This document shows, one piece after another, positions 45,883 through 63,528 of a stretch of DNA of 64,000 nt. The position numbers were made by a program, and so were the translations under genes. Location: IMG/VR virus record IMGVR_UViG_3300017917_003016, positions 64,001 to 128,000 of that record. One strand, given 5' to 3'. Each line of letters starts with the position of its first letter. The stretch's first letter is position 1. The DNA is from a virus (lineage: Duplodnaviria > Caudoviricetes). The notes under the pieces are model-generated. The model saw only the letters and a list, made by a program, of their open reading frames with translations. It made no database searches and had not been told where the DNA came from.

Positions 45883-47364
45883 ATGATATTTGGACTATTT
45901 GTATTAGCAGTTGCACTTGTTATCAGCGCAGTAGCCGCGTACTACAGTATTGCAGGTCTTACGGCTATATTCGCTGCGGCTGTTATACCTATCATTATAA
46001 TGGGTGCTGCTCTCGAAGCAGGTAAGATCACTGCCACAGTGTGGCTACACAAATATTGGCATCGAGCACCTATACAATTCAAACTCTATCTAGTTCCGGC
46101 TATTGTAATTTTAATGTTAATTACTAGCATGGGTATCTTTGGATACCTATCAAAAGCACACATGGATCAAACGCTAGTAGTAGGTGATAGTTCTAGCAAG
46201 GTATCTATCCTAGACGAAAAAATTGCCACAGAAAAGTCTAACATAGACAGTGCTCGTAAAGCCCTGCAGCAGATGGATGCACAGGTTGACCAACTCTTGG
46301 GTCGCACCACAGATGACCGAGGCGCTAACCGTGCAGTGCAGGTTCGTAAGCAACAGGCTAAAGAACGCAAGGCTTTACAGGATGAAATAAGCCAAGCACA
46401 GAAAAATATTGCGGCATTACAAAATGAACGTGCGCCTTTGGCAGCAGAAACTCGCAAGATAGAAGCAGAAGTTGGTCCTATCAAGTATATCGCAGCCCTG
46501 ATCTACGGCGACAATCCTGATGCTAATCTGCTAGAACGTGCGGTTCGTTGGGTTATTATTTTATTGGTGTTTGTATTTGATCCTCTTGCTCTTGTGCTAA
46601 TTCTTGCAGCAGAGCAAACTATCGAGTGGTCTAGAGAAGATAAGAAAAAGCAACCTGATCTGGGACTAAACATTCCTTTGCCTGAGGACGATGCTGCAGT
46701 GACAGATTTTTTTCGTCAGGGCAAGGAATTAGCAGAACGTATAGACCAGGGCGGCGGAACACTTACAGATGACGACCTTGCAGCCATGAATATTCGTCCG
46801 CCTAAAGACGAAGAAATCAGACCATTTATTGAAGAAGAAGTAGAGGCCCTGAACAGTTATGTTAGCAATATAACTGTTCAACTAGATTCAATCCCCAAAG
46901 TTGAAACTCCTACTGTAGAAGAAACACCTGTAGTAGATGAACTACCCCACGCTGATCCTCCCCCTATACGCGGGTTCCAACCACCAGCCATTGATGAGTC
47001 ACCGATAAACCCTCCGCCCAAATCAGTACAAATCGACGAAAATCAGGTGTTAATTCCTAACATGGCTTTAACCGCAGATGAAAATCCTGCTAGTGCTGGT
47101 TTTGGTACAGAGTTTCCGCAAAATCCCCAACGTGGTGATATGTTCCTCCGCGTAGACTATTTGCCTAGTAGACTTTACAAGTGGAATGACCGTAAGTGGA
47201 TAGAGGTCAGTAAGGAAAACTCAGATACACTGGCCTACGATGAACATTATATCAAACATCTAATAGAACGTATTGACCAAGGGGAGTATGATGTAGAACT
47301 ACTTTCTGATGTTGAACGTGAGCAAATTCAAAGGTACTTAAATGAAAAATCAAACACCCAGTAG
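45883..47364 (+). CDS. membrane-anchored coiled-coil protein
   Basis: N-terminal TM segments, long coiled coil, further TM, acidic/Pro linker. Confidence 0.65.
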   Translation: MIFGLFVLAVALVISAVAAYYSIAGLTAIFAAAVIPIIIMGAALEAGKITATVWLHKYWHRAPIQFKLYLVPAIVILMLITSMGIFGYLSKAHMDQTLVVGDSSSKVSILDEKIATEKSNIDSARKALQQMDAQVDQLLGRTTDDRGANRAVQVRKQQAKERKALQDEISQAQKNIAALQNERAPLAAETRKIEAEVGPIKYIAALIYGDNPDANLLERAVRWVIILLVFVFDPLALVLILAAEQTIEWSREDKKKQPDLGLNIPLPEDDAAVTDFFRQGKELAERIDQGGGTLTDDDLAAMNIRPPKDEEIRPFIEEEVEALNSYVSNITVQLDSIPKVETPTVEETPVVDELPHADPPPIRGFQPPAIDESPINPPPKSVQIDENQVLIPNMALTADENPASAGFGTEFPQNPQRGDMFLRVDYLPSRLYKWNDRKWIEVSKENSDTLAYDEHYIKHLIERIDQGEYDVELLSDVEREQIQRYLNEKSNTQ

Positions 47365-54894: not shown

Positions 54895-55377
54895 ATGAAA
54901 AAAACAATAACCTACCTCGCTCTACTCGCCTCTGCACAGGTTGCTCAGGCGGCAGAGTTGGTACATCAATTTAACAGCCCGGCATTCAGTGGAGCCGGCT
55001 ACAGTGCTCACGTACTTACCGTTAAACAATTAGAAGATCAAGCCAAAGAAAAAAATCACGCTGCAGCCGAAGCCATAAAAGCAAAAGCAGAACAGGAAGC
55101 AGCCAATACTCCCCAGGCACGTTTTATTGCTAATCTAGAATCACGTATCTATAGTCAATTGGCTAAACAATTGACCGATACTATGTTTGGTGAAGGCGCG
55201 ACCTGTACAACCACTGGGGTTATTTGTGGTACTATTGACAACTTAGGTGGCAATAGTATTAGTTGGATGTTGGGTGCCGGCAGCGATGCAGGAAATATAA
55301 TTATAACAATTAGAGACCTTAATAATACTAGTAATATTACAACAATGAAGGTCCCTGCCGGTACGTTTTACTTTTAA
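54895..55377 (+). CDS. csgF: curli assembly protein CsgF-like
   Basis: Signal peptide; ELVHQFNSPAFSG; FIANLESRIYSQLAKQL. Confidence 0.75.
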   Translation: MKKTITYLALLASAQVAQAAELVHQFNSPAFSGAGYSAHVLTVKQLEDQAKEKNHAAAEAIKAKAEQEAANTPQARFIANLESRIYSQLAKQLTDTMFGEGATCTTTGVICGTIDNLGGNSISWMLGAGSDAGNIIITIRDLNNTSNITTMKVPAGTFYF

Positions 55378-59796: not shown

Positions 59797-59868
59797 ATGT
59801 GGACCAAACCCGCTGCTCAAGACAAGCGTTTCGGTTTTGAAGTAACCATGTATATTGCTGCTCGCTAA
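59797..59868 (+). CDS. pqqA: PQQ precursor peptide PqqA (MWTKPAAQDKRFGFEVTMYIAAR)
   Basis: W-x-K-P...R-F-G-F-E-V-T-M-Y with ExxxY core; AAGGAG SD; own terminator; absent from ORF track. Confidence 0.92.
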   Translation: MWTKPAAQDKRFGFEVTMYIAAR

Positions 59869-59885
59869 TCGAGTAACAAGTACTG

Positions 59886-59912
59886 AAAAGCCCGCCTAGT
59901 GCGGGCTTTTTT
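59886..59912 (+). terminator. intrinsic terminator after pqqA
   Basis: AAAAGCCCGC-CTAGT-GCGGGCTTTTTT. Confidence 0.88.
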
Positions 59913-59955: not shown

Positions 59956-60852
59956 ATGACTCGATATTCTTCCTATCATGAATTTGATCAAGATACAAAA
60001 AACTTACCAAGAATAAGTTATCTTGAGACCATGCTGACCTATGCTTGCACACTGAGTTGTCGCAGTTGTACAAACTACAGCGACTACGGTATGAAAGGTG
60101 GGCATGTCAAATGGTCTACAGCGAAACCGTGGTTAGATGCATGGTTTGATCGTATACGAGTGGACTGCTTTGGTTTTATTGGTGGCGAACCTCTAATGAA
60201 TCCAGAATTAGAAACATGGATTAGAGAATTTCGTAAAAACTATCCATTTACTACAATTATGATTGTAACCAATGCTCAACTGTTTACAAAAAATCTTTGG
60301 ATACTAGATGTTATGGAAGAACTAGGTATGATTTACCTTAAGTTCACTAATCACATTCCCAAAGCCAAATATTTTACCAAAGCGGTGGATACAGTATTAT
60401 CTAGATTTCCGTGGGAATATAAACCCGAGTGGGAAAGGTATTTTTATCAAGAAAAAATTCTAGACTTTCTTGTTAGTGAATCACCAACTTTTATGAAAAC
60501 CTATCGGGGTGAGTATGGTTCAATGAAACCCTACAACAACGATCCACAACAGGCATTTAAGATTTGTAATCAACAAATTTGTCCTCTTCTTTATAACGGT
60601 CGCCTCTACAAGTGTAGCAGCCTAGGTATGCTATCGAGAGTTTTACAAGACCACGGCCAAGTTGACGATCCTGACTGGCAACCGTTTGTGCAAAATCAAG
60701 GATTGGATTTAAGTTGTTCTGATGAAGAATTGCGAGCATGGGCTGATAATTTTGGTAAGCCTATTAAAGAATGTAGGATGTGCCCAACAGAGAAAGATAA
60801 ACCTTTTCATTCTCACTATGACACAGTTGTTAATAGAATTAACATTTTTTAA
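59956..60852 (+). CDS. radical SAM protein with C-terminal auxiliary Cys motifs
   Basis: CTLSCRSC, GGEPL, VTNA, C-x4-C...YKC...CRMC. Confidence 0.85.
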   Translation: MTRYSSYHEFDQDTKNLPRISYLETMLTYACTLSCRSCTNYSDYGMKGGHVKWSTAKPWLDAWFDRIRVDCFGFIGGEPLMNPELETWIREFRKNYPFTTIMIVTNAQLFTKNLWILDVMEELGMIYLKFTNHIPKAKYFTKAVDTVLSRFPWEYKPEWERYFYQEKILDFLVSESPTFMKTYRGEYGSMKPYNNDPQQAFKICNQQICPLLYNGRLYKCSSLGMLSRVLQDHGQVDDPDWQPFVQNQGLDLSCSDEELRAWADNFGKPIKECRMCPTEKDKPFHSHYDTVVNRINIF

Positions 60853-60899
60853 TAGAAATCACATGTGATTTTTTGGACAAGTATAAATAAAATGTATGG

Positions 60900-60928
60900 T
60901 TGATACAAGTCAACGTAAGTATTACAAT
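60900..60928 (+). promoter_or_regulatory. sigma70-like promoter of leader ORF (late box TATAAATA at 60882)
   Basis: TTGATA-17-TACAAT. Confidence 0.6.
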
Positions 60929-60943
60929 AGGCGTTATACAAAG

Positions 60944-61069
60944 ATGAACACAAATCTTAACCTAAGACCAACACAGCCCAAAACACTAACCAGTGTTGTA
61001 GCATCCTATTGGTCACAGTTTGAGAGTCTAAATTGCGATCGCAGCATTGGCGGGGGGGTTCTAGGTTAA
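60944..61069 (+). CDS. putative attenuator leader peptide (41 aa)
   Basis: MNTNLNLRPTQPKTLTSVVASYWSQFESLNCDRSIGGGVLG; last codons form the 5' strand of an antiterminator. Confidence 0.55.
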   Translation: MNTNLNLRPTQPKTLTSVVASYWSQFESLNCDRSIGGGVLG

Positions 61070-61101
61070 CGGTATAGCAGCACATGCACACTAACTTAGG
61101 A

Positions 61102-61128
61102 CCCTGGACAGAAAATCCAGGGTTTTTT
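61102..61128 (+). terminator. attenuator-type intrinsic terminator
   Basis: CCCTGGA-CAGAAAA-TCCAGGG-TTTTTT; 5' arm overlaps alternative 12-bp helix 61056-67/61093-104. Confidence 0.8.
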
Positions 61129-61151
61129 GTTTTGTGCAGTAGAAAAAGAGG

Positions 61152-61180
61152 TTGACACTGGCGCAGATTAGTACTATACT
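61152..61180 (+). promoter_or_regulatory. sigma70 promoter of ncRNA/tRNA cluster
   Basis: TTGACA-17-TATACT. Confidence 0.8.
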
Positions 61181-61202
61181 GTGCAACATGTTAACTAAAC
61201 AT

Positions 61203-61957
61203 GCGGTTGTAAGGTGTGGTGGGTAACGAGGACCCAGACAGCACTCTAAACATTGTCAAACGGGCGGAGGCTGGGAGTCACAACAAACAGTCAGGGTACA
61301 GACGGTGTACCCACTATACATAAGCACACTGAAGGGCATTACCGCGTGTCTAACACTGCCCGATGAGTTAGACCAGTGTGCTTATGTATAGTGAAATCAG
61401 TTTTGGGGAGGGCACCTCCGTGACGGGAGGTTTTGATCGCCAGTGCAGTTGGGTCCCGGGTTAGTGGACAGAAAGACTGCCCTGCGTCACCAGAGTGCAC
61501 ATCAAGCGCCTCTCCAACCCTTTTATGAGGCTGCAGCCTCATATACGGAAGATGAGTAAACTCGAGTAAAACTCATCAAGGCACAAACAGCGGAGGCGTA
61601 TCGTCCCTCCCATGCTGAACCTGACAGCCTGGAAAGACAGGCACTATAGATAAGTGCTGTCAAGGGTATCGTTACGGGACGCCGTAACTATGCGGGCCTA
61701 ACTGGCGTGGAACAGGTCCTGATATAACCGCTATACGCTGTGGGATGGAAGCACCAGACCCCTAAATTGGCAAGACAGCACTTTTCTATAGTTTTCAAAA
61801 ACTATAAATCTGCACGGTAGCGAAAGGAGTCTAGTCAACTCGCCCACCTGCAAGGGTAGTACATATGCCATCCCTGGCCCTGCTGACCCAGGATAACCCA
61901 GGTGACACCAGAGCCGCTTACATGAGGCTCACGCAGGGTGCAGATCTATAGTTTTTT
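61203..61957 (+). ncRNA. array of unidentified structured RNAs (at least 5 modules)
   Basis: GC-rich, no credible ORF; long closing stems 61312-31/61374-93, 61643-61/61774-92, 61801-15/61938-52; internal hairpins and pseudoknots. Confidence 0.7.
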
Positions 61958-62045
61958 GGAAGTGCGGCTCAGATGGCGGATGGGCACCGGACTGTAAATT
62001 CGGCACACAGAAACGCAGTAGGTTCGAATCCTACCACTTCCACCA
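61958..62045 (+). tRNA. tRNA-Tyr(GTA)
   Basis: GGAAGTG/CACTTCC acceptor, CCGGA-CTGTAAA-TTCGG, long variable arm, encoded CCA. Confidence 0.9.
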
Positions 62046-62970: not shown

Positions 62971-63528
62971 ATGCCAGCAACATTTTTGGTCAGCGACACG
63001 CATTTTGGTCACGCTGGCGTCTGCCGATTCCTGCGTGAGGATGGTACTAAACTCAGACCATTTGACACGCCCGAAGACATGGACGAATTCATGATCAAGG
63101 CGTGGAACGACCGTGTTAAGCCTAACGACAAGGTCTACCATCTCGGTGATGTGGTCATTAACCGCAAGTCTCTCAAAACTCTTGCTCGCCTTAACGGTGA
63201 CAAAGTGCTTATCAAGGGTAACCACGATATCTTTGCACTAGAGGATTATACCACCTACTTTAGAGATATTCGCGGTTATCACGTCATGAATGGCATGATC
63301 CTTAGTCATATCCCTGTGCATGCAGACAGTCTTGCACGTTTTGGTACCAACATTCACGGACATCTGCACGCCAATCGTGTCATGAAAGATGGAGTTATTG
63401 ATCCAAGATACCACTGTGTTTGTGTAGAGCACACCGACTATGCTCCTATACTGTTTGAGGATGTAATCAAACGTATTCTAGAAGAAGGCGGCAGTGTGGG
63501 TTTTAGGAACGGCAACGGTCCACTTTAA
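62971..63528 (+). CDS. calcineurin-like phosphoesterase
   Basis: SDTHFGH, YHLGDV, KGNHD, LSHIP, NIHGHLH; AGGAGG SD. Confidence 0.9.
   Translation: MPATFLVSDTHFGHAGVCRFLREDGTKLRPFDTPEDMDEFMIKAWNDRVKPNDKVYHLGDVVINRKSLKTLARLNGDKVLIKGNHDIFALEDYTTYFRDIRGYHVMNGMILSHIPVHADSLARFGTNIHGHLHANRVMKDGVIDPRYHCVCVEHTDYAPILFEDVIKRILEEGGSVGFRNGNGPL

Follow-up and report, generated by a model that had tools for sequence, protein, structure and literature searches.

What is the role of a short open reading frame (ORF) that stands, between a promoter of its own and an intrinsic terminator, just ahead of a non-coding RNA and tRNA array in a giant lake phage? The locus lies in a stretch of 64,000 nucleotides, here called the window, which corresponds to bases 64001-128000 of a 201.7-kb IMG/VR record. 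The record is 56% complete according to CheckV and carries DnaB- and DnaK-like genes, a ribonucleotide reductase, and 27 tRNA genes. An earlier note on this DNA had proposed that the ORF is the leader of a ribosome-dependent attenuator, in which a ribosome that reaches the stop codon covers an antiterminator strand so that transcription terminates, and a stalled ribosome permits read-through into the array. Our comparison of 56 distinct units from related uncultured phages (that of the window and 55 others), together with modeling of their RNA, suggests that the unit probably belongs to a conserved family of ribosome-dependent, leader-peptide transcription attenuators. The phages that harbor these units are probably T4-like.

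All of the features described in that note were found on the plus strand, at most 1 nt from where they had been placed. The promoter of the unit (P1, 60900-60928) consists of TTGATA at 60900-60905 and TACAAT at 60923-60928, separated by 17 nt, and a consensus scan gives 10 matches in 12 positions. P1 is homologous to the TTGACA...TACAATAGA promoters of three relatives (L083, L022, and L031), and transcription would be expected to start near 60935, leaving a 5' untranslated region (UTR) of 8-9 nt; the 5' UTR contains no Shine-Dalgarno sequence. A degenerate copy of the relatives' leader promoter is present at about 60873-60900, upstream of P1, and tandem promoters are also found in L031. The leader ORF (60944-61069) comprises 41 codons and a stop codon, running from an ATG at 60944 to the TAA at 61067-61069; another ATG upstream, at 60896, is in frame with it (57 codons from there). 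Its sole Trp codon (W23, 61010-61012), which is invariant in the family, is located 45 nt ahead of the 5' strand of a helix that we call H1, and a Cys codon (C31) is found at 61034-61036. H1 had been described as a 12-bp helix between 61056-61067 and 61093-61104, including two G-U pairs; these pairs are present, and the helix has 14 bp in the ViennaRNA fold. Its 5' strand (region 2, 61055-61068) spans the final four sense codons plus the TA of the stop codon. Its 3' strand (region 3, 61092-61105) overlaps, as claimed, the start of the terminator 5' arm by 4 nt (61102-61105). The terminator (61102-61133) has a G+C-rich stem of 7 bp (CCCTGGA, 61102-61108, with TCCAGGG, 61116-61122), a 7-nt loop (61109-61115), and a T6 tract (61123-61128) followed by G and T4; the 12 kb examined contain no other strong terminator on the plus strand. 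The second strong promoter of which the note had warned is real: P2 (61152-61180; TTGACA at 61152-61157, a 17-nt spacer, TATACT at 61175-61180; 11 of 12 consensus matches) begins 24 nt past the T6 tract, at the head of the non-coding RNA and tRNA array. The 96-nt fold has a stability z score of -3.6, with none of 200 shuffled sequences equally stable, and the pre-terminator segment folds with z = -2.7. The three mutually complementary 11-mers each occur once in the 201.7-kb record.

Upstream of P1, at 60882-60889, lies the TATAAATA box, which the note had taken for a late box. This reading is plausible, as 11 of the 13 plus-strand sites of the motif in the genome are intergenic. Nine of the sites are located 6-62 nt before an ORF start. 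Those in the window include 45868, 50662, 53140, and 60882, and those beyond it 64579, 70763, 93093, 93099, 123031, and 132485; one copy stands 7 nt ahead of a virion-protein ORF at 45883. The box, a motif like that of T4 late promoters, looks like a real promoter element, and its positions fit promoters of this type. In most relatives the box does not precede the leader promoter and is placed within its spacer: 42 of 55 units have ATAAATA within the 17 nt that separate the two elements of their sigma-70-type leader promoter (for example, L053:5590-5633). Early and late promoters may overlap here, or the box may bind a factor.

The family was recovered by means of neighboring proteins. The phosphoesterase encoded close to the unit (62971-63528) led to 80 related IMG/VR loci with 71-85% protein identity. 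When the window leader was compared with these loci by blastn, the terminator alone matched, in four loci. The same unit is present at those loci with a quite different sequence, and iterated nhmmer searches gave 19 units. Several of these have a small gene that begins about 20 nt behind the terminator and encodes a protein of 57 residues. An alignment of this protein then provided 43 more loci, at each of which a leader unit is found directly upstream of the gene for this protein, and a protein search added four further contigs, for a total of 56 distinct units. Every one of them contains a strong promoter, an open ORF of 27-53 codons, H1, and a terminator. A blind scan for the architecture (sigma-70 promoter, 25-65-codon ORF, and terminator) of all loci and the 201.7-kb genome returned this family alone, with one unit per locus and one in the genome. 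The leader peptides diverge to approximately 20% identity, whereas the neighboring phosphoesterase stays at 80-85%. The design is conserved across the family, and the sequence is not.

Other searches did not extend the family. No match to 60600-62000 was obtained by blastn against GenBank phages, and the nearest GenBank carriers of the phosphoesterase (OM954018 and ON615601) have it without a tRNA or leader context. Exact and degenerate scans of IMG/VR and metagenome contigs for the H1 pair of the window found none. A peptide profile searched against 5.8 billion proteins gave 6 hits, all of them members already known; gene callers mostly miss the leader ORFs. A covariance model found no further copies in 98 sources, and its marginal hit in the window at 55293-55357 (E = 0.045) was taken as chance. 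No Rfam model, the leader models included, matches within 60882-61135 at E values up to 1, which sets the window unit apart from the leaders described there, and no Pfam family matches the leader peptide.

Comparison of the units shows that the leader ORF is under selection as a coding sequence. The leader frame is open in all 54 distinct ORFs, with an average of 3.4 and 2.6 stop codons in the other two frames. For the three subfamilies that can be aligned, pN/pS values are 0.31-0.48, and third-position changes are in excess. A conserved block of 14 codons contains six differences between L017 and L079, all of which are synonymous and at third positions, and L082 and L067 differ by an in-frame codon indel. 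In 29 units the ATG follows the -10 box by 6-7 nt, a spacing like that of leaderless mRNAs, and others have GGAG or AAGGA Shine-Dalgarno sequences with ATG or GTG starts. The 5' UTR of approximately 8 nt and the lack of a Shine-Dalgarno sequence in the window are a weakness of the translation reading for this particular copy. The purifying selection seen here is also what one would expect of a small protein that has a function of its own. In that case the unit would be an independent gene, H1 and the terminator would form an mRNA-stabilizing 3' end, and the genes downstream in the relatives would be fed by a constant leak past a mediocre terminator. The presence of a promoter and a terminator of the unit's own, the pN/pS values, and the conserved blocks in the peptide speak for such a gene. 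We nevertheless consider it unlikely, since a peptide that falls to the identity given above beside a far better conserved phosphoesterase, and that has no Pfam family, is not what an independent protein would lead one to expect, and since it leaves the geometry described below unexplained.

This geometry is constant across the family. The distance from the stop codon to the T-run is 47-61 nt in the 56 units, and in every member the 5' strand of H1 either includes the stop codon or ends just before it, having started 5-30 nt (median, about 13) ahead of that codon. The 3' strand takes 2-7 nt, most often 4, of the 5' arm of the terminator without exception (56 of 56 units). The energy of H1 ranges from -9 to -27 kcal/mol. 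A small-protein gene with a stable 3' end would account neither for the position of the stop codon at the 5' strand of H1 nor for the fixed spacing, nor for the fact that H1 always takes the base of the terminator. All three are what one would expect if a terminating ribosome masks the antiterminator strand, and the central proposal of the earlier note is supported by this conserved geometry, by the covariation of H1, and by the modeled competition described below.

The note had suggested looking for covariation in homologous leaders, and H1 does covary. RNAalifold predicted no structure from a plain MAFFT alignment of 53 pre-terminator segments; this alignment is not structure-aware, and pairs were therefore counted for the named structure instead. 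Over 14 H1 pairs in the same alignment, 70.8% of the cells are paired, compared with at most 59% for slid partners. Covariation scores 0.247, the shuffles giving 0.185 +/- 0.013, and changes on both sides of a pair are seen in 44 cells, against 23 +/- 5.6; 0 of 500 shuffles reached either value, although the members are related by descent and shuffle-based p-values are therefore optimistic. An Infernal alignment gave the same picture. Further evidence that the RNA is constrained comes from GGGGTTCT at the base of H1, which is read in the frame GGG-GTT-CTA in the window and AGG-GGT-TCT in L053. Conservation of these bases despite the change of frame, and with it the Gly-rich C terminus of the peptide, reflects a constraint on RNA. 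The earlier note had entertained an arrest peptide; one with a fixed tunnel geometry is unlikely and was rejected, as the G-rich C terminus is dictated by an RNA helix that different members read in different frames, and the Trp residue is found anywhere from 6 to 31 residues from the stop across the family.

Competition between H1 and the terminator was examined by equilibrium folding of the nascent RNA, beginning 60 nt ahead of the stop codon and ending with the 3' arm of the terminator, with the probability of the bottom three terminator pairs as the readout. The ribosome was represented by a 28-nt footprint, idealized as -15 to +12 around the A-site codon. In the free RNA, the terminator base forms with a mean probability of 0.28 (median, 0.09) across the family. 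With a footprint on the stop codon, the probability rises to a mean of 0.93 (median, 0.99), and with a footprint on the first Trp codon it is 0.32 (median, 0.15). The corresponding values for the window are 0.19, 0.99, and 0.19. The same calculation for 78 control terminators elsewhere in this DNA gave a mean of 0.91 and a median of 0.98, with 5% below 0.5. In silico, H1 and the terminator would thus be mutually exclusive, in a manner dependent on the position of the ribosome. A cruder test, which asks whether the 5' arm pairs with something upstream, is positive for 87% of the family and 30% of the controls; it discriminates weakly, and the argument therefore rests on conservation and the ensemble calculation, not on the existence of a helix. 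In the window, where the overlap is merely 4 nt, a slightly shortened H1 could coexist with the terminator, so that real read-through would depend on kinetics beyond equilibrium folding. The terminator loops of the family are also larger (7-11 nt) than those of the controls (4.8 nt on average), and the hairpins are intrinsically weak, a property that would suit a small-protein gene whose downstream neighbors are fed by leakage.

There is also the possibility that the terminated transcript of approximately 195 nt is itself the product, a small regulatory or dual-function RNA of which the ORF and H1 are structural parts. A strong promoter and a terminator would indeed yield a short transcript that is well folded over its whole length (z = -3.2), and an attenuator-derived small RNA, rnTrpL, and an active leader peptide, peTrpL, are known (PMC6614838, PMC7968998). 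Conservation is poor outside H1, the terminator, and the coding constraints, as reflected in the blastn matches to the terminator alone, and no conserved single-stranded stretch resembling a seed was seen. We regard a regulatory RNA as improbable as the explanation of the family, and it would in any case be compatible with an attenuator without replacing it.

How the putative attenuator may work can be outlined as follows. Host RNA polymerase would start at P1, and possibly also at the TATAAATA box late in infection, and the short leader ORF would be transcribed and translated. H1 draws its 5' strand from the end of the ORF, stop codon included, and the CCCU of the terminator stem is part of its 3' strand. 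If a ribosome is at the stop codon when the terminator is made, its footprint would keep H1 open, the full 7-bp terminator would form, and transcripts would end close to 61128-61133. If no ribosome is present, or if it lags or has stalled farther upstream (at the invariant Trp codon, for instance), H1 would instead form first, the base of the terminator stem would be withheld, and polymerase would read through. We infer from the sequences that ribosomes set the outcome, and the same holds for the signal that would slow them, for which general translation capacity and the decoding of Trp, Cys, and the other sampled codons are both candidates. The window leader does contain a segment (60959-60969) that can pair with 61057-61067 in the minimum-energy fold of the whole leader, as in the 1:2 helix of the trp leader, and that would thereby round out a set of 1:2, 2:3, and 3:4 helices, but this is probably chance: the helix is not conserved, with z = -1.6 in the window and about 0 in relatives. 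Neither a conserved anti-antiterminator nor a pause hairpin was found among the relatives, in contrast to trp-type leaders with their conserved 1:2 pause/anti-antiterminator hairpin. The lack of an anti-antiterminator would make the unit a two-state device, whose untranslated leader should read through, the opposite of trp. The lack of a pause hairpin leaves nothing conserved to synchronize ribosome and polymerase, and this counts against an attenuator.

What lies behind the terminator bears on the claim that read-through leads into the non-coding RNA and tRNA array. This claim finds support in many relatives, where a gene or tRNA without a promoter follows the terminator, and not in the same sense in the window, where P2 follows. 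At 43 of 43 loci the gene for the 57-residue protein starts 18-38 nt after the T-run, leaving no room for a promoter, so that it would be transcribed by read-through alone. A tRNA-Trp gene begins 9 nt beyond the T-run in L037 and L043. On the other hand, a consensus promoter directly follows the terminator in the window and in L066, L017, L067, and L079, which favors an independent small-protein gene to some extent. Every tRNA array in this genome has a near-consensus TTGACA-17-TATAAT promoter before it (61152, 65080, 67335, and 69563), and a fifth such promoter (62919) precedes the phosphoesterase gene. Given P2 and these promoters, read-through from the leader would be at most an extra input in the window, merely adding to the transcription from P2. 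With P2 in this position, the unit probably has little regulatory weight on the array here, and the released leader RNA or peptide may be as important.

The 57-residue protein is conserved in 43 related phages (for example, L053:5813-5983, L075:4210-4380, and position 2501 of L090-L132) and is probably helical. It has no Pfam or PHROGs match, and no homolog was found in the 201.7 kb of this genome. At L072:5589-5831, the gene behind the terminator encodes instead an 81-residue Cys-rich protein (phrog_13558, DUF6171-like), a homolog of which is encoded elsewhere in this genome (C1:85916-86047). In the window, P2 and a tRNA-Tyr gene are separated by approximately 770 nt (61190-61957) with a G+C content of about 50%, compared with 42% for the genome, and with no long ORF; Rfam gave no match in this interval.

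The earlier note had remarked on the absence of a run of a single amino acid in the leader. A run is indeed never seen, and tandem or clustered regulatory codons occur neither in the window, with its single Trp, nor in the relatives. The composition of the peptides is nonetheless distinctive, as Trp is found in 56 of 56 leaders and Cys in 55 of 56. The relatives have 1-3 Trp codons and 0-3 Cys codons per leader, and the two residues make up 3.6% and 3.5% of the leader peptides, respectively, compared with 1.1% and 0.7% of phage proteins. In L008, L037, L017, and L079, the Trp codon is only 5-15 nt from H1; a ribosome stalled there would itself cover H1, and sensing of Trp therefore cannot be universal.

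The leaders may also be matched, if weakly, to the tRNA genes that follow them in the amino acids represented. In 39 distinct tRNA orders downstream, no tRNA is found among the first three as often as tRNA-Cys (20) and tRNA-Trp (19). For tRNAs within 2.6 kb downstream, 98.5% of their amino acids are present in the leader, against 94.0 +/- 1.1% when arrays are permuted, 80% when peptides are drawn at random from the leader composition, and 68% when the proteome composition is used. At the level of anticodons the coverage is 92.2% against 89.3 +/- 1.4% (p = 0.017, an optimistic value because the units share descent), and cognate codons are not enriched among the leader codons across the family. 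The window leader covers 7 of the 8 non-Met tRNAs of its first array, which is nearly what chance would give and is not significant alone. These data raise the possibility, which we put forward tentatively and with more doubt than assent, that the leader peptide serves as a sample of the amino acids that the downstream tRNAs carry, the rare Trp and Cys in particular, and that tRNA is supplied on demand. Slow decoding caused by scarce or damaged host tRNA would delay the ribosome, H1 would form, and the phage would transcribe its own tRNA-Trp/Cys block and the gene for the 57-residue partner. As part of this tentative picture, the window copy would represent a lineage in which insertion of a promoter has partly decoupled the array. 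In the broader sense, the conserved design and the modeled folding suggest that these phages probably tune their output of tRNAs and small genes to the performance of translation.

Leader-peptide attenuation is textbook knowledge for amino acid operons. The phage units share with the leaders of these operons (Escherichia coli trpL, hisL, pheL, leuL, thrL, and ilv; Rfam RF00513, RF01859, and others) a short, probably translated ORF close to the promoter and an intrinsic terminator, an alternative helix that competes for the 5' arm of the terminator, and a stop codon placed so that a terminating ribosome would mask the antiterminator strand. They differ in having no regulatory codon run, with one invariant Trp and usually one Cys in its place, in their location on a phage, and in their cargo, which consists of tRNAs, non-coding RNAs, and small proteins and not of biosynthetic enzymes. 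The pheM leader of E. coli pheST, a peptide rich in Phe codons, attenuates a tRNA synthetase by cognate decoding. Attenuation of a component of the translation apparatus by a leader peptide would be common to both, whereas the phage cargo is tRNA genes and the phage leader samples many amino acids. In vmlR (PMC9226507) and mef/msr(D) (PMC4335068), whether the terminator or the antiterminator forms depends on where a ribosome stands on a short ORF upstream. The logic would be shared, and no amino acid run is needed, but those systems respond to ribosome-bound antibiotics and reside in bacterial chromosomes or mobile elements. A full-text literature search, incomplete in coverage, found no published case of leader-peptide attenuation in a phage or over tRNA genes.

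The tRNA arrays of large phages are usually thought to compensate for codon usage or to provide an escape from host defenses that cleave tRNA. If the attenuator reading is true, giant phages would gauge the decoding capacity of the host by a cheap test translation and would match the output of their tRNAs and small early genes to it, which bears on why large phages carry tRNA arrays and when they are used. The supply of tRNA on demand, if true, would be the logic of the trp operon applied to tRNA genes in a two-state form. The family would represent a minimal two-state attenuator, often with a leaderless-type start, and its prediction is opposite to that for trp, in that read-through should rise when the leader cannot be translated. 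The 56 natural variants provide a ready-made mutational series.

The idea that the leader ORF encodes a precursor peptide (RiPP) for the radical SAM enzyme encoded upstream (59956-60852) was rejected and is close to refuted: although the gene lies directly upstream of the unit in the window and in L087 and the peptide has conserved Trp and Cys, a radical SAM homolog is present at only two of the loci compared (L087, where a leader unit is present as well, and L002, on a contig that stops approximately 100 nt after the gene) and absent beside the other 18 members of the first set, and the enzyme already has a pqqA-like peptide gene upstream (59797-59868). Used as a search handle, the radical SAM protein gave one relative, cut at the contig end.

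Several minor observations were made around these genes. The pqqA-like mini-ORF, which ends in FGFEVTMYIAAR with its stop at 59868, is followed by a strong terminator (59885-59911) before the radical SAM gene, so that the segment 59746-59915 is part of a second arrangement of small ORF, terminator, and gene 1 kb upstream of the leader unit; Rfam gives weak hits resembling Trp/Phe leaders there (E of about 0.3). Directly after the stop codon of the radical SAM gene, an A+T-rich perfect palindrome (AAATCACATGTGATTT; 60856-60874) is followed by T residues and may be a weak terminator of the upstream operon. One of the relatives, L088, encodes a RegA-like translational repressor (PF01818). Finally, beyond the window, ARAGORN predicts in this genome a tRNA-Ser with the anticodon ACT (C1:134669-134759) and a permuted tmRNA (C1:152844-153399) with a 29-residue tag ending in ...SAEAVAA.
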